The notes under the pieces: model-generated
Databases searched by the model: none
Told to the model about the DNA's origin: nothing
What the model saw: the letters and a program-made list of their open reading frames with translations, nothing else
Shown: piece after piece, positions 17,580 to 48,985 of the stretch
Numbering within the stretch: the stretch's first letter is position 1
Layout: each line of letters opens with the position of its first letter
From: Acidobacteriota bacterium
GTDB taxonomy: Bacteria > Acidobacteriota > Terriglobia > Terriglobales > SCQP01
Length of the DNA stretch: 64,000 bases
Direction of reading: 5' to 3'
NCBI GenBank assembly: GCA_027459505.1
Contig: DAIDIE010000041.1
Coordinates: 3,252-67,251, forward strand
Position numbers and translations under genes: made by a program

Positions 17580-18245
17580 TGGTGAGCGTAATACTCCGGG
17601 TTCGGCTTGTCCGGCCGCCGGTCCGCCAATTCGCGGCGCGCTCGCTCGGGGCCGCGGCCCGTCTTGAGTTGTTCCCGGATTCAGGCCCAGTGCCGCTCGG
17701 ATTGGGAGATGGCTCCGCGCTGATTGGCGTTGACGGTGATCTGCTGCCGCATCGTCCGCGCCGCGTTGCCGCTGCTGGTCCGTCGCGCGTTCAAGCGCCC
17801 TATGAAAAGTTGCGATGCATAAGCACTTTCGCTCAGCCGGTTGCCCTCGCCACGGTCTGGCCCGAGGTACTTCTTGTTGTGGAAGCCGGGCAAGCGTAGG
17901 ACGCAAGTAGCGTGGGTGGCGGCGGGATCGCTCCGTATTGGCCCGCCAAGTCGCGGAGGGCGGCTTCGGCGGATTCGATGGAGAAGGCATGATCGGGGCC
18001 GGAGTCTGCTTCGGCCACGCGACAGATGACTTCGCGCTTGCCGGGCGAGGCGTCCAGAACGTAGTTGGGGGTGGGCAGGTTGGGTCGGCGAGGACCTGGT
18101 TCAGGCGATCGCCGCCCGTCGTGGTCGAGGTTGAGGTAGAGGTAGAGGTAGAGGGGTCAAGGTAGAGGTGGAGGATGGCGGCGATGTCGGCCCTGGCGCG
18201 GATGCGGGCGTCTGGCTTGAGGGCTGTTCTCGACAAGTCGCCCAT
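17580..18245 (-). pseudogene. Frameshifted RepB-family DNA primase / replication protein remnant
   Basis: One minus frame gives PNLPTPNYVLDASPGKREVICRVAEADSGPDHAFSIESAEAALRDLAGQYG. Another gives VLRLPGFHNKKYLGPDRGEGNRLSE. These resemble RepB_primase blocks as I remember them, but they lie in different frames. Confidence 0.45.
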
Positions 18246-18257
18246 CCCCGCTTCCCG

Positions 18258-18542
18258 CTAGTGGGCGCGGGCTTGGAAGCTGATGTGGAGGCGCGATCCG
18301 GTAGCTGCGGCGAGCCGCTGTAGGGTTCGCATCGTCGGGAGCACGCGCCCGCTTTCAAGCCGTGCCACAACGGGCTGCGTGGTGCCCATCTTTTTCGCCA
18401 ACTCCCGCTGGGTCAGCCCGGCGCGGTTGCGCGCGTCGATGAGGGCTGACGCTAGGGCGAACTCATCTTCCAGTGCCTCGTACGCCTTGCGGTACTTGGG
18501 CTCCTTCATCCACTTCTTGTGTAGATCAGATACGCGCGCCAT
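18258..18542 (-). CDS. XRE-family HTH antitoxin (HigA-like)
   Basis: MARVSDLHKKWMKEPKYRKAYEALEDEFALASALIDARNRAGLTQRELAKKMGTTQPVVARLESG is a classic XRE HTH. I prefer the ATG at 18542; the track start 18560 is a TTG. Confidence 0.8.
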   Translation of the reverse strand: MARVSDLHKKWMKEPKYRKAYEALEDEFALASALIDARNRAGLTQRELAKKMGTTQPVVARLESGRVLPTMRTLQRLAAATGSRLHISFQARAH

Positions 18543-18552
18543 TCTGGCCTCC

Positions 18553-18624
18553 TCACTCAAGCGATTTCAAGGCTTCCACCTCCGCATCGATTGTGGCGTT
18601 CAGGGTCTCAACCGGCCACGGCAT
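18553..18624 (-). pseudogene. Truncated toxin remnant (23 codons) upstream of the antitoxin
   Basis: MPWPVETLNATIDAEVEALKSLE-stop resembles the N-terminus of Gp49/HigB-like toxins. It ends 10 nt before the antitoxin ATG, and the rest of the toxin is absent. Confidence 0.35.
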
Positions 18625-18632
18625 GCCTGACT

Positions 18633-18650
18633 ATACCAAAAACGGTATAT
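18633..18650. promoter_or_regulatory. Perfect palindrome TATACC-N6-GGTATA, probable TA operator overlapping a -10-like TATAGT
   Basis: The minus strand reads cataTACCgtttttGGTATAGTcaggcATG, directly upstream of the toxin-remnant ATG. Confidence 0.4.
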
Positions 18651-19020
18651 GTTTGGCGGCCTGGCGCTGCACGTTGCGCTGAGGCGGTGAGGGGCGCGGT
18701 CGCCGTTCGAGTCCGCGCCGCGCGAGTGCCATTCGAGCCCCGGCTACATTCGGCGCCGGGCAAGCCCCTCTCGCGCCCATCAGGCGCGCGCCCAGCGGTT
18801 GTCTCGCAGCACAAGAGCGCTACCGCTTCGGCTTCAACGTCCCGGAGGCCCGGCGGGAGCGTCTTGGTGCCGGTCAGGTCGCCATCGCCAATGTGGCCGA
18901 GGATTTGGGGACGCTGGGGACAGCTTCAGACCTGTCACCCTTCCCACCCTTTCGGGTGGGAGCCACCGCTGTCCCCGATTATTCCCGTCGCCGCGTTCCA
19001 AACCCAAGGTTTTTTGTTGA

Positions 19021-19168
19021 CCGGGAAACCCGCCAGGGTAAACCGCGCCGCCTGACCAACAGCCACGCCCCACGGTGAACTGTAAACTGTGCACTGTCAA
19101 CTTCTGCCTGCGCACTGTCAACTTCTGACAGTGCACTGTGAACCTCTGACCTCCCACCGTGCACCGCA
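19021..19168 (+). repeat. Dispersed intergenic element: conserved ~50-nt module followed by a 7-nt periodic tail
   Basis: The module is cgccagggtaaaccgcgccgcctgaccaacagccacgccccacggtgaac. The tail is made of heptamers: tgtaaac tgtgcac tgtcaac ttctgcc tgcgcac tgtcaac ttctgac agtgcac tgtgaac. Confidence 0.75.
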
Positions 19169-19286
19169 CTCCAATTGTTACAACCGCTGTAACAGTTTCT
19201 TCTCCCCCAACTTGGGGGAATCGACAAGATTGTTCCGCCGTACCACGATTGACCTGAGCGCCGCTTGCGCTCTGGAGTCTGTCGTC

Positions 19287-20885
19287 ATGCCAAAATCACG
19301 CAAACGCAAAAAGCATCACCAGAAGCATCACCACAACCGCTCGTTACCTTTTATCCGCAAAGCCGCCGCCACATCCGTGGCCGCCACGCCAGCGGAGTCT
19401 GTCTCGCCGCTCAACGGCGAAGTCGGCGCTGAAACAATTGCGGGAAGAACCGCTGCAATCGCTCCGCCTCTCGAGAAAAAAGTAGCGTCCGCGGCAGTTG
19501 CGGCCGCGGCAGCTACCGCCGGCGCCACGGACAATGACGTCCGCCAACCTTATACACACAACGAGCCCACCGCGGCGGCCAGCGCTGCCGCTTCGCCTTC
19601 TCCCTCAACCCCTCACTCCAAACCCCGCACTCCCACGTCAGCGACTGCCGATTCCGGCTTTGCCGCATCCGGCGCGTCCGGCGCGTCCAGCGCATCCGGC
19701 TCCGCCTCGCCCTTCGCCGCCTTCGCCGACTGGCAGGCCTTCAGCATGCCGCCCGAGCCGCCCGAGCCTGTCTGGGAGTTCCGTCCCACCCGCGCCCAAC
19801 TGCGCCTGCTTAGAGCCATGCTCAGTCCCGACTGGGACACCGTCCCCACCGTCACCGCCGTCTGCGAACGCATCGGCATCAGCCGCGGCACTTATTACCG
19901 CTGGTCGGAAGACCCCGCCTTCATGGCCTGGCTTTCCGCCAACGTCGTGAACCATGTATCGACGTTCGGGCCATGGGCGCTGCTCGCGCTGCATCATGGC
20001 GCCATGAACGGAGATCCGCGCTCTTCGCGTCACCTCTACTCCATGCTGCTGCCGCGCCGCTTTGGCGGACTCAACACCTTCCTCGAGCCGTACGCCAGGC
20101 AAGCCGCTATGGCGCCCAACCCGCTCTCTTCGGAAGAGGACGAACGCCTCTGCCAACTGGAGTGGGAGGCCGAGTGCGCCCAGCGCGCCGCCCGCGCCGC
20201 AAACCAGCAGTCAACAATGAAAACGCCAAAGCACCCCGGTGCGGCCCGCTCAGCCGCCTCCAAATACCAGGCTGCAACCACAACCGCAGCACAACCCGGC
20301 CCCGAAGCCGCCATCGAGAACCCGTTTGCAGACGAGTCTGGAATCGCCGCCGCAGCGGGCAATAGTAAGGCGGCCAGTTGTGACTTGGCCAACGCAGAAG
20401 CGGGCAGCCGCGAGGCCGCCGGCCAGGAGCGGTCAGATCAGGAAGCTATCAGCGCCACACTGCTCGAAGTTCCCGCCGCCGAATCTAAAGCAGCAAACAA
20501 CGCTGCCATTGACGACATCATTGACGACATCATCGACGACATCACTGATGACGCCACTGTTGACGCCATTGCTGGCGCCACTGGTAACGCCATCATCGTT
20601 GACGCCATTCTTGACGCTACTGATAACGCAACCGATGACGCCACGGAATCCGCCGCCGCGAATCACCCCGCCGCGCAACAAGCAGCGCAACCAGCAACTG
20701 CCTCTGGCAACCTGACCGCCTCGGCCGGCGAAGCAACTGCCCCCGCCAATCCGGCGGGCAGCGAGCACGCCGCCGTGGAGCAGCGCAAGCCCGTCTCCAT
20801 CTCTTCCGATGGAGCCCCCGCTCGCCCCGCCGCGCGCGCCGCCGCGCGCGCCGCCATCGCCGGACCCACAAAAGGGGCCGCCTGA
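19287..20885 (+). CDS. HTH-domain protein with Lys/His-rich N-terminus and Ala/Asp-rich low-complexity flanks (mobile-element style)
   Basis: I chose the ATG at 19287 (MPKSRKRKKHHQKHHHN). The central block is RPTRAQLRLLRAMLSPDWDTVPTVTAVCERIGISRGTYYRWSEDPAFMAWL. The track start 19089 lies inside the heptamer repeat. Confidence 0.5.
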   Translation: MPKSRKRKKHHQKHHHNRSLPFIRKAAATSVAATPAESVSPLNGEVGAETIAGRTAAIAPPLEKKVASAAVAAAAATAGATDNDVRQPYTHNEPTAAASAAASPSPSTPHSKPRTPTSATADSGFAASGASGASSASGSASPFAAFADWQAFSMPPEPPEPVWEFRPTRAQLRLLRAMLSPDWDTVPTVTAVCERIGISRGTYYRWSEDPAFMAWLSANVVNHVSTFGPWALLALHHGAMNGDPRSSRHLYSMLLPRRFGGLNTFLEPYARQAAMAPNPLSSEEDERLCQLEWEAECAQRAARAANQQSTMKTPKHPGAARSAASKYQAATTTAAQPGPEAAIENPFADESGIAAAAGNSKAASCDLANAEAGSREAAGQERSDQEAISATLLEVPAAESKAANNAAIDDIIDDIIDDITDDATVDAIAGATGNAIIVDAILDATDNATDDATESAAANHPAAQQAAQPATASGNLTASAGEATAPANPAGSEHAAVEQRKPVSISSDGAPARPAARAAARAAIAGPTKGAA

Positions 20886-21206
20886 ACGGGTGGGAAAACG
20901 CGACAGCGCGCCAACGCGCGCCGCGGCCCTCAAAGCCGCGTAACCAGAGTCAAATCAGCACCTTAGGAGGGAACCAGCAAGCAAGATCAAAATCCGGGTG
21001 TCTCATTTTCGATCCCCTGAACACCCCGCCCAGGTCCGAAAGGCGCCGACAACAGGGCAAGAACAAGCTGCTCAACGCCGCGCCCAGGGCAAACACTGCC
21101 CAGGCACAGCGGGAAGAGACAAAATCCAAACCCGAACGCCAACCCTCAGCCGTTCGTACAGGAGATCCCCGCGCCATGCATGAACCACAATTGCAAGTTG
21201 AAAGGC

Positions 21207-21338
21207 CACGGTCGGGTGTCCACTCAACGTTGTATGTTGAGTGGGAAAACCGCCGAGGTCATGTGCGCCGCCAACCCCAGGCAAGCCCCACAGACAACAG
21301 ACAACAGACAACAGACAACCGACAACCGACCCCCGTCC
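21207..21338 (+). repeat. Direct repeat copy 1 (hairpin + module + CAGACAA heptamers), paired with 21675..21815
   Basis: Hairpin CCACTCAAC-gttgtat-GTTGAGTGG, then gaaaaccgccgaggtcatgtgcgccgccaacccc, then cagacaa x4 and ccgacaa x2. Confidence 0.85.
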
Positions 21339-21348
21339 ACCCGAGCGG

Positions 21349-21450
21349 TACTGCGTCCCAGCCCGCGCGCCTGCCAGCATGCGGAGGAAAGAGACAACGT
21401 TCGGCGCCGGGCAAGACTAGCCCGGCATAGCACGAAGTGCGTATGCCGGG
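21349..21450 (-). repeat. Copy B of the ~100-nt repeat, inverted relative to 1531..1632
   Basis: The reverse complement reads cccggcatacgcacttcgtgctatgccgggctagtcttgcccggcgccga...ctggcaggcgcgcgggctgggacgcagta. Confidence 0.8.
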
Positions 21451-21610
21451 TTCACCAAAGCGGAGCGATCCCGTATAGCGAGCGCAGCGACGCGTAATCC
21501 GCCGCCGCATGAATCGTGCACCCTTTGCTCACCTTTCCAAACCGGCGCCAGAAACCCCCGCCCCGCGTACTCACGTTAACCGTGGCTCCAACGCCTGGAT
21601 TCGGACAACA

Positions 21611-21673
21611 CGCCAAGGTAACCTGCGCCGGGACCAATGGCAACGCCCCACGGTGAGGTGTGCACTGTGAACC
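21611..21673 (+). repeat. Additional copy of the conserved module (...acgccccacggtga + short heptamer tail)
   Basis: cgccaaggtaacctgcgccgggaccaatggcaacgccccacggtgaggtgtgcactgtgaacc aligns to 19021..19090. Confidence 0.7.
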
Positions 21674-21674
21674 C

Positions 21675-21815
21675 CACGGGTCCGGTGCCCCACTCAACGT
21701 TGTGTGTTGAGTGGGAAAACCGCCGAGGTCATGTGCGCCGCCAACCCCTGGCAAGCCCCACCGAAAACCGACAACAGACAACCGACAACCGACAACAGAC
21801 AACCGACCCCCGTCC
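21675..21815 (+). repeat. Direct repeat copy 2, paired with 21207..21338
   Basis: CCACTCAAC-gttgtgt-GTTGAGTGG gaaaaccgccgaggtcatgtgcgccgccaacccc, followed by an accgaca/acagaca heptamer tract. Confidence 0.85.
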
Positions 21816-21959
21816 CGCCTCGCAGTCCACGTCCAGTTCCGAAGCAGGCGGGACGGGGCCCCGGCGCCAGCCGGTGCGCGTCGGAGGTTTTCACCAGCGC
21901 CGGATACAAGCAACCGTGTGTCAAGAGAAGCGCCAGACCCGAACAGAACTGACTTCGAA

Positions 21960-22042
21960 CCGTCAGCTTCGGCCGGACGACGAAGCACTGAAATAAAAGC
22001 GGTCGTGCCGCTTCTGCGCTACGATCATTTGGTGCGCCGCCC
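21960..22042 (+). repeat. Twin-hairpin element copy A, just upstream of the 22074 gene
   Basis: ccgtcaGCTTCGgccggacgaCGAAGCactgaaataaaaGCGGtcgtgCCGCttctgcgc...gcgccgccc aligns to 24101..24169. Confidence 0.7.
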
Positions 22043-22073
22043 TCAGGCACATACCGGAAAGCCGCTGCGGCTT

Positions 22074-22541
22074 ATGGACCCCGCGCCAGATGCGCAGTTC
22101 CTCTCGCAATTGAGGAAGCGGCTACGCTACCAGGGCAGTCCGAAACACAAGCGGAATCCGCAAACGTTCGGACTCCCCGCGTTCTCTGGCGCTCGCGGTG
22201 ACGCCACCCTTTGCGAGCACGCAGCATTCAGCGCCGGCGACAGCGGTCGAATCCCATTCATCATGGGAAGGGGCGTCCAGGCCGGTTTGATTGGCAACTG
22301 TTTCGAGCATGGGTTTGAGCATGGACTACCCAAGACCATCTGGGCAGTGGACCAGACCGGTTGGATTTTTGAAGGCAAGCTCACCAACATCACGAGCGGC
22401 GAATATCACGGCTATCCGCTGTTACCGGGAGCACCGATTGCTCGCTTAATATATGATCGGTTCAGGGACTGGGTTGTGAACCACCCCAAGCCACGCAACC
22501 AGCAGGCACTTGAAAACTGCCACGATCTTTATGGACTCTAG
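22074..22541 (+). CDS. Uncharacterised small basic protein (155 aa), candidate toxin/effector of a two-gene cassette
   Basis: I chose the ATG at 22074 (MDPAPDAQF); the track ORF from 21711 runs through the repeats. Distinctive blocks are YQGSPKHKRNPQTFGL and WIFEGKLTNITSGEYHGYPLLPGAPIA. The stop overlaps the next gene. Confidence 0.6.
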   Translation: MDPAPDAQFLSQLRKRLRYQGSPKHKRNPQTFGLPAFSGARGDATLCEHAAFSAGDSGRIPFIMGRGVQAGLIGNCFEHGFEHGLPKTIWAVDQTGWIFEGKLTNITSGEYHGYPLLPGAPIARLIYDRFRDWVVNHPKPRNQQALENCHDLYGL

Positions 22542-35227: not shown

Positions 35228-35560
35228 ACAGAACAGAGAACACAGAACACAGTTCACAGTTGACAGTTGAAAGTTGACAGTTCACCGTGGGAGGGCCATG
35301 AACGTCGGCGTGGCCGCTCGTGTCGGCGGGTTACGGACATTTGACTTGGGAGCGCCGCTGGTTCCAACCGGTTCACAGTGCGCGGGCCGAGAAAGTTCAC
35401 AGTGCACAGAACACAGTTGACAGTTGACCGTGAGAGGGCCATGAAGGTCGGCGTGGCCGCTTGTTTCGGCCAGTTACGGACGTTTCACTCGGGCGCGCCG
35501 GTCGTCCCCACCTTGCCGTACAGTGAACCGTGAACTGTAAACTGTGCACTGCTATTCCCC
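35226..35560. repeat. Composite repeat: three heptamer tracts separated by two tandem ~120-nt units
   Basis: Heptamers: cacagaa cacagtt cacagtt gacagtt gaaagtt gacagtt. Unit 1 is caccgtgggagggccatgaacgtcggcgtggccgc... and unit 2 is gaccgtgagagggccatgaaggtcggcgtggccgc.... The region ends in gaaccgtgaactgtaaactgtgcactg. Confidence 0.8.
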
Positions 35561-40214: not shown

Positions 40215-40247
40215 GAAGTTGTCAGTTGGCAGTTGTCAGTTGTCCGT
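40215..40247 (+). repeat. Heptamer tract (ggaagtt gtcagtt ggcagtt gtcagtt gtccgta)
   Basis: 7-nt periodicity. It shares CAGTTGTCCGTAGG with 48958..48985. Confidence 0.7.
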
Positions 40248-40359
40248 AGGGCATGGTCGTGCTTAGGGGGCGTGCTTTGGCCTGGTTGCGGGCGATTCCG
40301 GGCGGTTCTTTGATCTACCTGAGCGGCGGAGGGGCAGTATCACCTGCTACCATGCGAGG

Positions 40360-45739: not shown

Positions 45740-46961
45740 ATCCAGGTCTGGCGGCTGGGGAGCGCATTGCACATGTTCCGGGCGCGCGCCCATGGCAATG
45801 GCTCTACCCACAAAGCGTGTGAAACCGGGAATGCGCACCAGCAGGCGCAACTGCCAGGGGGCGGTGAGCGGTCCAGGGTGCTGGAAGATCCTGGCGAAGC
45901 CACGATGGGCCAGCAGTTGGATCGCCTGGGTGATGCGCATGGGAAGCTCGCGGCGTTTTTGAACCGTGCGCAGGTGATTTTCGTTCAGCTGGCCGGCGCG
46001 CAGCGGGTGCCAGAGCAGATTGGCGGTGGCGACCGCATCCTGAATGGCGAGATTGATTCCGACCCCGCCGGCCGGCATGGGCGGCATCACCGATACAGAG
46101 AAGGCCGGGGCGGTGCCAACGCCGCAAACGATTGATTTGGACGGTCAGCAGCTTGATTTGTTCCCAATCCAGCAACTGCTCCACCCGATCACCGAGGAAA
46201 GGGGCAATCTGGCGGATGCCGTTGCGGAAGGCCGGCAGCCCGGCCTCGCGCATTTGCTGGAAAGACCCCTTGGCAATAATCAGCCCCGCCTGGAAGTAGT
46301 CGCCGCGATTGATCAGGATCAGGGCCTTGCCGAAATTCACATTGCCGAGGACTTCGCTGGGATCGTTCTGAAGGCGGGGCAGGCGGAACCAGAGCACGTC
46401 GATGGGCACGCCGCTTTCCTCCAGCGGCAACTGTGCGGCCTCGCGGATGGTGGAGTGGCGTCCGTCGCAGGCGACGACTAAATCGGCGGTGATTTGAACG
46501 GCTTCGCCATTGTGCGTGGCGGTCACACCGGTGATGCGATTCTGCTCCCACAGCAGTCCAGAGGCCTGGTGACCCATGAGCAGTTCAAAGCCGGGGAAAC
46601 GGGAGGCTTGCCGCGCCAGGAAATTAAGGAAATCCCATTGCGGCATGAGAGCGATGAATTTGCAGCAGGCCGGGACATGGCGGAAATCGGCCATTTGGAG
46701 CGGAGTGCCTCCAATCATGGCGCTGGCGGTAGTAATTTGCTGATGGAGAAGCTGCAGGAATTCGGTGAGGATTCCCAACTCGTTGAGGACATCGAGGGTG
46801 GAGGCGTGCACCGTGTCGCCGCGGAAATCACGGAAGAAGTCCTGATGTTTTTCCAGCACGGTGACGCACACGCCGGCGCGCGCGAGAAGGTAACCCAGCA
46901 TGATTCCCGCCGGTCCCCCACCGACCACACAGCAGGTTGTTGCGCGGTTGATCGTCATCAC
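45707..46961 (-). pseudogene. FAD-dependent monooxygenase/oxidoreductase disrupted inside the GDAAH motif
   Basis: N-terminal GxGxxG (CCVVGGGPAGIMLG). Frame A ends its homology at LLCIGDAAHA, and frame B continues AGGVGINLAIQDAVATANLL. The usual MSPx residues between them are missing and the frames differ. Confidence 0.6.
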
Positions 46962-46994: not shown

Positions 46995-47075
46995 AGGTTA
47001 GCAGTTGACAGTTCACAATTCACAGTGGGGCGGTTGCCGTTGGTGGGGCGGCGCGCCTGTTCGTGGCGCCGGGCG
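46995..47075 (-). repeat. Dispersed element copy (module + heptamer tail) in reverse orientation
   Basis: The reverse complement reads aggcgcgccgccccaccaacggcaaccgccccactgtgaattgtgaactgtcaactgctaac. Confidence 0.65.
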
Positions 47076-48957: not shown

Positions 48958-48985
48958 TATCAGCTGCCAGTTGTCCGTAGGACGT
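48958..48985 (+). repeat. Short heptamer-type tract sharing CAGTTGTCCGTAGG with 40215..40247
   Basis: tatcagctgccagttgtccgtaggacgtgg. Confidence 0.5.

Follow-up and report, generated by a model that had tools for sequence, protein, structure and literature searches.

Heptamer arrays joined to a conserved head and a REP-like hairpin in the intergenic regions of an acidobacterial genome

The window analysed here is a 64,000-nt stretch of DNA from an Acidobacteriota bacterium, corresponding to positions 3252-67251 of contig C19 in a 4.06-Mb draft genome (hereafter G000; 62 % G+C, 45 contigs). A first-pass annotation had listed nine intergenic sites in the window as carrying degenerate tandem heptamers, and 7-nt periodic tracts are present at all nine. 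Tandem Repeats Finder (TRF) returned period 7, or its multiples 14 and 21, at seven of these sites (19075-19150, 21290-21330, 21760-21807, 35228-35285, 35413-35428, 35523-35551 and 40217-40244). A phase-7 detector (unit core AACYG plus two free bases, threshold of four units) added 46995-47041 and lengthened the second array of the 35-kb group to 35393-35425. The earlier description of the repeat was correct as to its 7-nt unit; however, the unit is best written as AACYGNN, on the strand where it follows a conserved GC-rich segment that we call the head.

Several copies lie on the forward strand between 19 and 22 kb. The first (19005-19079; nhmmer, C19:22256-22330, E value 2e-14) comprises a decayed REP hairpin, which at 19005-19050 no longer folds (z=+0.9), and a GC-rich head ending CCCCACGGTGAA; an array of eight degenerate AACYGNN units with a 21-nt super-period follows at 19078-19145 (phase-7 detector; TRF 19086-19150, period 21, score 95). 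The window contains two intact hairpins. The hairpin at 21219-21245 (TCCACTCAAC, a 7-nt loop and GTTGAGTGGG, with the 5′ foot GGGTG; DNA fold -13.2 kcal/mol, z=-4.8) leads into a head (to 21289) and an array of 5.6 to 5.9 ACAGACA/ACCGACA units, together spanning 21246-21330 (nhmmer 21223-21296; TRF 21290-21330, 5.9 copies, 97 % matches). The hairpin at 21689-21715 has a perfect 10-bp stem (CCCACTCAAC and GTTGAGTGGG; fold -13.9 kcal/mol, z=-5.6) and precedes a head and an array of 6.6 to 6.9 units at 21716-21807 (nhmmer 21693-21766; TRF 21760-21807, 6.9 copies). The heads of these two copies are 97 % identical and their arrays differ in length. Between them lies a head-only copy ending CCCCACGGTGAGG, followed by two to three degenerate units (21607-21675; nhmmer 21607-21656, corresponding to C19:24858-24907, E value 5e-5; sequence reading). 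TRF reported the 21-nt, three-unit super-period at both 19086-19150 and 21760-21807, which implies that multi-unit blocks have been duplicated; 21 bp corresponds to two helical turns.

Three further units lie at 35 kb. On the reverse strand, an array at 35228-35285 begins directly after the stop codon of the upstream gene and is joined to a head of a divergent subfamily (whole unit 35228-35345; TRF and detector; junction CCACGGTG at 35272-35290), the same head subfamily that adjoins a PF05635 gene on contig C10. A second reverse-strand unit of this subfamily (35393-35490, array 35393-35425 by the detector; BLASTn 86-87 % identity to the first) stands back-to-back with a forward-strand head and array (35491-35551, array 35526-35551; detector), forming an outward-facing pair. 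The sequence from 35385 to 35560 folds as one long hairpin (z=-2.8), and the outward pair (35393-35551) together with the third unit fills the entire spacer between two convergent genes. The remaining sites are all on the reverse strand: a four-unit array located in a divergent promoter region, with CCTACGGAC as its junction (40216-40249; TRF 40217-40244, detector), an array of five units with its head (46995-47075; detector and sequence reading) that lies 34 nt upstream of, and co-oriented with, the gene at 45804-46961, and the weakest member, three degenerate units after CCTACGGAC (48958-48985; sequence reading), which falls below the four-unit threshold.

No Rfam family matched the window at its gathering score, and permissive thresholds, applied to 18500-22500, gave no more than chance-level matches; no tRNA or tmRNA genes were found within the window. 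Downstream of the first array (140 nt), 19287-20885 on the forward strand encodes a 532-aa low-complexity protein with a weak match to HTH_Tnp_1_2. tBLASTn placed its paralogues at eight loci in the genome, several of them beside arrays (contigs C14, C31, C40 and C42); on C40 and C42, where the paralogues have a weak ankyrin-like C-terminus, the array lies 13 nt upstream of the start codon. Other short repeats in this part of the window are 12-nt tandem repeats encoding DDI/TDD-type runs within the low-complexity ORF (20507-20644) and a GGTAGA hexamer repeated eight times (18123-18174).

Throughout G000, the AACYG core recurs at spacings of 7, 14 and 21 nt in 196, 133 and 87 occurrences, against approximately 25 at other distances, and the phase-7 detector found 110 arrays of at least four units at 54 loci, compared with three arrays in a shuffled genome. 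The genome-wide TRF run proposed as a check in the first-pass annotation independently returned approximately 130 arrays, all with units reducible to AACYGNN. A head-plus-array pattern gave 31 matches in the genome (reversed control, 0), and an iterated nhmmer search seeded with window 19001-19080 recovered 60 module copies, including those given above for the window. Taken together, the spacing counts, the shuffled control and the nhmmer results mean that the original observation stands: the 7-nt periodicity is far above background, the module said to abut the tracts is real, and the sites align into a single dispersed family across the whole genome. A missing 7-nt signal or a failure of the sites to align genome-wide had been named as counting against the family, and neither was found.

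The aligned copies reveal a polar element in three parts, namely an optional hairpin, a GC-rich head and the heptamers. The 27-nt hairpin is located 5′ of the head in approximately 24 copies; the earlier outline of the module had thus missed its start, which is the 10-bp-stem hairpin. The head is approximately 45 nt long and typically ends CCCCACGG; in the alignment, a stretch resembling GCGCGCCGCC is followed 10-14 nt later by GCAACGCCCCACGG. From the head, the heptamers run away into unique flanking DNA, often ending in AACTC. Within the unit, positions 1-3 and 5 hardly change, position 4 alternates between T and C and positions 6-7 are variable, a pattern that is partly imposed by the phase-7 detector but with which TRF agrees. 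AACTGAC is the commonest unit (122 genome-wide), followed by AACCGGC (44), AACCGAC (39), AACTGTG (35) and others; exact TAACTGA is rare in G000, AACTG being what its units have in common with it. The junction motif adjoins the head end in 41 arrays and the distal end in four, and pairs of arrays within 250 nt are tandem (25) or back-to-back, that is outward (11), with no face-to-face pair.

These features bear on the simplest account of the tracts, that they are plain simple-sequence repeats which arose in place by slippage and are immobile, with shared flanks that are coincidental or due to local duplications. Heptamers have indeed been reported to outnumber all other classes of long simple-sequence repeats in prokaryotes (Mrazek 2007, cited by PMC4679880), and unit numbers do differ between copies. 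However, at dozens of unlinked loci spread over many contigs the arrays follow the same head of approximately 45-75 nt, the handedness is strict (11 outward pairs, no inward pair) and contigs of the assembly break at these elements. We therefore strongly disfavour this account and regard it as very improbable.

Slippage nevertheless appears to have left its mark on the arrays. Three heads sharing 96-99 % identity (window 21223, window 21693 and a copy on contig C20) are followed by arrays of 39, 46 and 25 nt whose units are differently ordered, and near-identical heads carry anything from 3.6 to 6.6 units, indicating that arrays turn over much faster than heads, as slippage predicts. Of the roles suggested earlier, a slippage-prone spacer and a MITE tail both fit these variable arrays on near-identical heads in a polar, intergenic element; the third, a protein-binding array, is considered below.

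Array orientation correlates with local GC skew. For 75-83 of approximately 100 arrays, AACYG reads on the strand that is locally richer in C, at every size of skew window; with clusters collapsed, the same applies to 43 of 52 independent loci (binomial p=2e-6). Arrays without a hairpin display the same bias (32:7 and 38:14), and array loci are three times denser in bins with an absolute skew of at least 0.08. Our own rough gene calls have no strand bias relative to skew; transcription direction is therefore not the cause of the array orientation. Among other genomes with arrays, 15 of 19 single AACTGAG arrays follow the skew rule in an Acidobacteriaceae MAG (G449), the ratio is 15:10 in G263, in which the skew itself is weak, and in a Pyrinomonadaceae chromosome (G425) most arrays are inverted pairs and no replichore pattern is evident. 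The gene dnaA of G000 is located on another contig than the window (C8, 90.9 kb), approximately 20-30 kb beyond a weak minus-to-plus skew change. An orientation rule tied to strand asymmetry favours a process that acts on DNA and is linked to replication over translational control, and the correlation may reflect replication, read in a 45-contig draft whose skew is patchy, with blocks of ±0.10-0.15 alternating with flat regions inside contigs.

Genome-wide, 24 hairpins were found with at most one stem mismatch (CCCACTCAAC, a 7-nt loop and GTTGAGTGGG), all of them within intergenic elements, in the same orientation, with a T-rich loop and the 5′ flank CGGGTG; two have a compensated T:A to C:G change. 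They occur singly or in direct tandem, for example four at approximately 160-nt spacing on contig C13, and none of the doublets that define REPINs was seen. A search for Y1 transposases in G000 returned two genes, both inside array islands. One of these is the single RAYT of the genome (C42:123609-124242), which has the HUH (HFH) and Tyr (YMHRYP) motifs and scores 76.7 bits against NF047646 (cut-off 80). Its N-terminus lies in another frame owing to one frameshift near 123690 in the assembly, for which a pseudogene and a homopolymer assembly error are both possible explanations; given this frameshift, the family may be a fossil. The gene is bracketed by a forward hairpin 130 nt upstream and two inverted hairpins downstream, with arrays just outside, which is the REPtron layout of a RAYT flanked by inverted cognate REPs.

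Homologues of this RAYT (46-64 % identity) are present in 45 of 53 genomes of a sister family and in three of 27 genomes of the window's own family. At six or more homologous loci a hairpin upstream is matched by an inverted one downstream, and at least five more loci are one-sided. The foot of these hairpins is always GGGTG[C/G]CCC, and their stems differ by fully compensated changes (e.g. CTTTAC/GTAAAG, GGTCTC/GAGACC and CATCTC/GAGATG). A defining mark of REPs is a conserved tetranucleotide, GT[AG]G, situated 0-2 nt 5′ of the stem, and both the REPtron layout and REP-RAYT co-variation have been described (PMC6006769). The foot is GGGTGC in G000 and GGGTGG, which contains GTGG, at some homologous loci; it is conserved across the order without being the canonical GTAG. 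Sequence and layout pair the 27-nt hairpin, as cognate REP, with the one RAYT (Y1) transposase of the genome. A terminator or promoter role was rejected, as a run of A, not T, follows the hairpin and no type of spacer is preferred.

With the hairpin as a REP, the whole element might be one REP/BIME family moved solely by the RAYT, the heptamers being slippage-prone linkers or by-products of cutting and rejoining and PF05635 being irrelevant. At C42 the gene and its hairpins are arranged as in a REPtron and arrays lie immediately beyond the hairpins on both sides, the tandem hairpin-head-array units on C13 resemble the RAYT-proximal left end, and the orientation bias is of a kind reported for Y1 single-strand transposition (PMC6006769). 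However, a hairpin lies within 130 nt of no more than 16 of the 110 arrays, and the other 94 have the same skew bias. Nor do RAYT genes and arrays occur together consistently across the order: arrays without a RAYT match are present in G028 and G040, G038 has 11 RAYT copies and no arrays, and approximately 29 RAYT loci of other genomes have REPs and essentially no heptamers. A general link between Y1 genes and arrays was likewise rejected, as AACYG arrays lie near only two of 30 Y1 loci in five array-rich genomes. Because few arrays are near hairpins, RAYT loci elsewhere lack heptamers and Y1 loci are rarely near arrays, the RAYT cannot explain the arrays, and we consider sole mobilization by the RAYT unlikely. 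A reverse-transcriptase origin of the tails was also rejected; the only reverse transcriptase gene of the genome (C39:90888) is not near any array.

The heptamers themselves have a wider distribution. Within the phylum, bare AACYGNN arrays were detected in 48 of the 401 genomes and 33 of the 228 genera covered; a reversed control pattern was near zero in most of these genomes, with many control matches in a few (e.g. G383). The matches listed for (AACTGNN)5 include Cyanobacteria, Bacteroidota, Acidobacteriota, Planctomycetota, Beggiatoa-like bacteria, Chromatiales, Verrucomicrobiota and Poribacteria, among others. The head-plus-array pattern was absent from all 40 relatives searched, and the head junction and the specific REP gave no matches in two metagenome-collection scans. 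TAACTGA is the array unit in the Pyrinomonadaceae chromosome. In G056, which belongs to a different acidobacterial family, (AACTGGA)n arms run outward from a gene-less core at approximately 25 loci (L017-L045); the core is conserved, approximately 70 nt long and AT-richer, and about nine inspected loci have the same outward arms.

The likeness to cyanobacterial STRR heptamers noted in the first-pass annotation is borne out, with the STRR/TAACTGA heptamers being the nearest described repeats. TAACTGA direct repeats have been described in Beggiatoaceae, 15 Cyanobacteria and five Bacteroidetes, with function unknown and translational control proposed (MacGregor 2015, PMC4679880), and TTGTCAG, also a heptamer unit of G000, is listed 44 times for Nostoc PCC 7120 (PMC2408588). 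Like the TAACTGA repeats, the repeats of G000 are tandem direct heptamers with the core AACTG, almost exclusively intergenic, with two to tens of units mixed with related heptamers and a patchy distribution across phyla. In contrast, the last two bases are free here, T and C alternate at position 4, and the arrays come joined to a conserved head, in some cases with a REP as well. There is no concentration at start codons, forward-upstream placement being a trait of the Beggiatoa genome, the host phylum is new, and neither skew bias nor a PF05635 link is mentioned in the sections of PMC4679880 consulted. The heptamer arm thus appears, from its sequence and distribution, to be a separate module of the STRR/TAACTGA class, independent of the REP.

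PF05635 (Avd-like) genes stand out beside these arms. The single such gene of G000 (C10:131597 to approximately 132210) lies within the densest array island, with a head and array 80 nt upstream and the longest array of the genome (22 units) directly downstream; these flanking arrays are in direct orientation, not inverted. The gene has an interruption of approximately 250 nt between its conserved N- and C-terminal parts, the latter in another frame. In five other genomes of the phylum, a period-7 array was found within 250 nt at 18 of 25 PF05635 loci versus two of 30 Y1 controls (Fisher p=5e-7). Arm inversion was tested at the 11 two-sided loci of these five genomes; the arms are mutually inverted at all 11, and the unit differs from one gene copy to the next. 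Two further genomes have arrays at 12 of 13 PF05635 loci, ten of them two-sided. Pooled over the seven genomes (six from the window's phylum sample and one named Pyrinomonadaceae chromosome), arrays lie within 250-300 nt at 30 of 38 PF05635 loci and on both sides at 21.

The converse does not hold. A PF05635 gene is present at only four of the 120 AACTG-array loci listed in a cross-phylum scan (within 75 nt of the array at three of the four), the window copies carry none, and in G056 the single PF05635 gene has arms unlike those of the abundant AACTGGA-armed family. PF05635 genes are therefore usually embedded in heptamer arms and most arms have no gene. This statistical link makes the Avd-like gene a candidate trans-acting partner, whose protein may act on the arms. 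On a broader reading, heptamer-armed elements would form one widespread, undescribed class of mobile DNA, of which the autonomous form is a PF05635 gene between inverted arms and STRR/TAACTGA-type arrays are gene-less progeny; the protein would bind its own arms, and fork-coupled insertion or arm growth would account for the GC-skew orientation bias. We put this reading forward tentatively, as a possibility with the chances against it.

The placement of the arrays relative to genes, together with the conservation of the unit, bears on the proposal that they are functional binding arrays for a DNA- or RNA-binding protein, acting in translational or transcriptional control or as a polar chromosome signal in replication or segregation. 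Five of the seven positions are conserved and two are free, both within arrays and across phyla, the orientation is tied to strand asymmetry with loci concentrated threefold in high-skew regions, and several forward-oriented arrays closely precede start codons (at window 46995 and at the C40 and C42 copies of the HTH paralogue). However, the comparison of tract positions with gene ends, one of the checks proposed earlier, revealed no preference: by our rough gene calls, made for this analysis, 54 arrays lie toward a 5′ gene end and 40 toward a 3′ end, 108 of 110 are intergenic, and convergent, divergent and tandem spacers are used roughly as available, convergent ones included. Array length and unit types differ between near-identical copies, the difference in unit between PF05635 copies of other genomes argues against a single reader protein, and no candidate protein was identified. 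Binding arrays are, in our judgement, an improbable explanation. Still, the five-base core conserved across phyla is explained by neither our preferred reading nor its rivals, and this cross-phylum conservation of AACYG hints at a sequence-specific constraint beyond a selfish or slippage model.

We think it probable that the sites are a lineage-specific, non-coding, BIME-like mosaic repeat in which a RAYT-serviced REP is combined with a head-plus-heptamer arm, and that the repeat is selfish or neutral. The two modules are fused in approximately a quarter of the module copies. The first, the 27-nt REP hairpin (foot GGGTGC, stem CCCACTCAAC), would be recognized by the genome's RAYT, a Y1 HUH enzyme of a class whose members cut hairpins of this kind and join them again, in single-stranded form, at the replication fork. 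The second, the GC-rich head of approximately 45 nt with an AACYGNN array always pointing away from it, would gain and lose units by slippage faster than the head changes; its counterparts in other Acidobacteria would be the STRR/TAACTGA-class arrays that form inverted arms around PF05635 genes. The repeats are presumably mobile, with copies spreading as DNA into intergenic spacers in an orientation tied to replication-related strand asymmetry, and the strand rule suggests a step that involves single strands or is linked to replication. Any influence on adjacent transcripts, for instance through long hairpins where genes end, would be incidental and would not account for the existence of the repeats. 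The elements are most likely selfish mosaic DNA. The earlier reading had missed the REP hairpin with its RAYT, the outward handedness, the GC-skew orientation bias and the PF05635 link.

Both components are known kinds of bacterial repeat. Like the REP/BIME and RAYT (TnpA-REP) systems and REPtrons (Nunvar 2010; Bertels and Rainey 2011, PMC3116915; Quentin et al. 2018, PMC6006769), G000 has a short, extragenic, multi-copy palindromic hairpin with a conserved 5′ foot, a single RAYT gene bracketed by inverted hairpins, a stem that co-varies with the RAYT lineage, and mosaics with other motifs, as in BIMEs. It differs in that the foot is GGGTG[C/G], the canonical one being GT[AG]G, the loop is 7 nt and T-rich, the copy number is low (approximately 24) and REPIN doublets are lacking; moreover, the hairpin is fused to a head and heptamer array, a combination that REP systems are not known to have. 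IS200/IS605 elements and their hairpin-ended non-autonomous derivatives likewise combine a Y1 HUH enzyme with recognition of hairpins, and their orientation is also linked to the strand asymmetry of replication, their single-strand transposition being into the lagging-strand template (summarized in PMC6006769). In contrast to these, no IS-like element with a left end, a right end and a target tetranucleotide was found in G000, and the Y1 gene at the contig end of C40 is not visibly bracketed by repeats.

A third parallel involves the heptamer-armed genes. The IVS elements of 23S rRNA genes in Leptospira and Coxiella carry a PF05635 ORF between inverted repeats, and the Avd accessory protein of diversity-generating retroelements belongs to the same Pfam family. 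Common to the IVS elements and the acidobacterial loci are a small four-helix-bundle gene between inverted arms able to pair into a long stem and the behaviour of an inserted element. Unlike in the IVS, however, the acidobacterial arms are tandem heptamers with a unit that differs per gene copy, the elements lie between protein genes and not in rRNA genes, and almost all G000 copies have no gene.

For decades, STRR/TAACTGA heptamers have been on record from cyanobacteria and a few further groups with neither mechanism nor function assigned, and here the conserved head makes each array a polar, countable element. What appears to be new is the host lineage, the non-canonical REP foot, documented with its RAYT across an acidobacterial order, the joining to a conserved head, the strictly outward arrangement of arrays, the dependence of orientation on GC skew and the quantified PF05635 association. 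Our literature search found no paper on acidobacterial heptamers or heptamer-armed PF05635 genes and, as far as we found, no report of skew-linked orientation, of the PF05635 association or of variable arrays on near-identical heads. In practical terms, such elements break assemblies, create spurious ORFs and fill gene-end spacers with long hairpins.

Two further features adjoin the arrays. A shared module containing GGTACTGCGTCCCAGCC lies directly 3′ of the heptamer array in four copies (window 21335-21450, C20:24070-24160, C10:21350-21450 and C4:850-950). Finally, the second Y1 gene of the genome (C40:8385-8772) is IS200-like, runs off the contig end and adjoins a paralogue of the array/HTH segment of C42.
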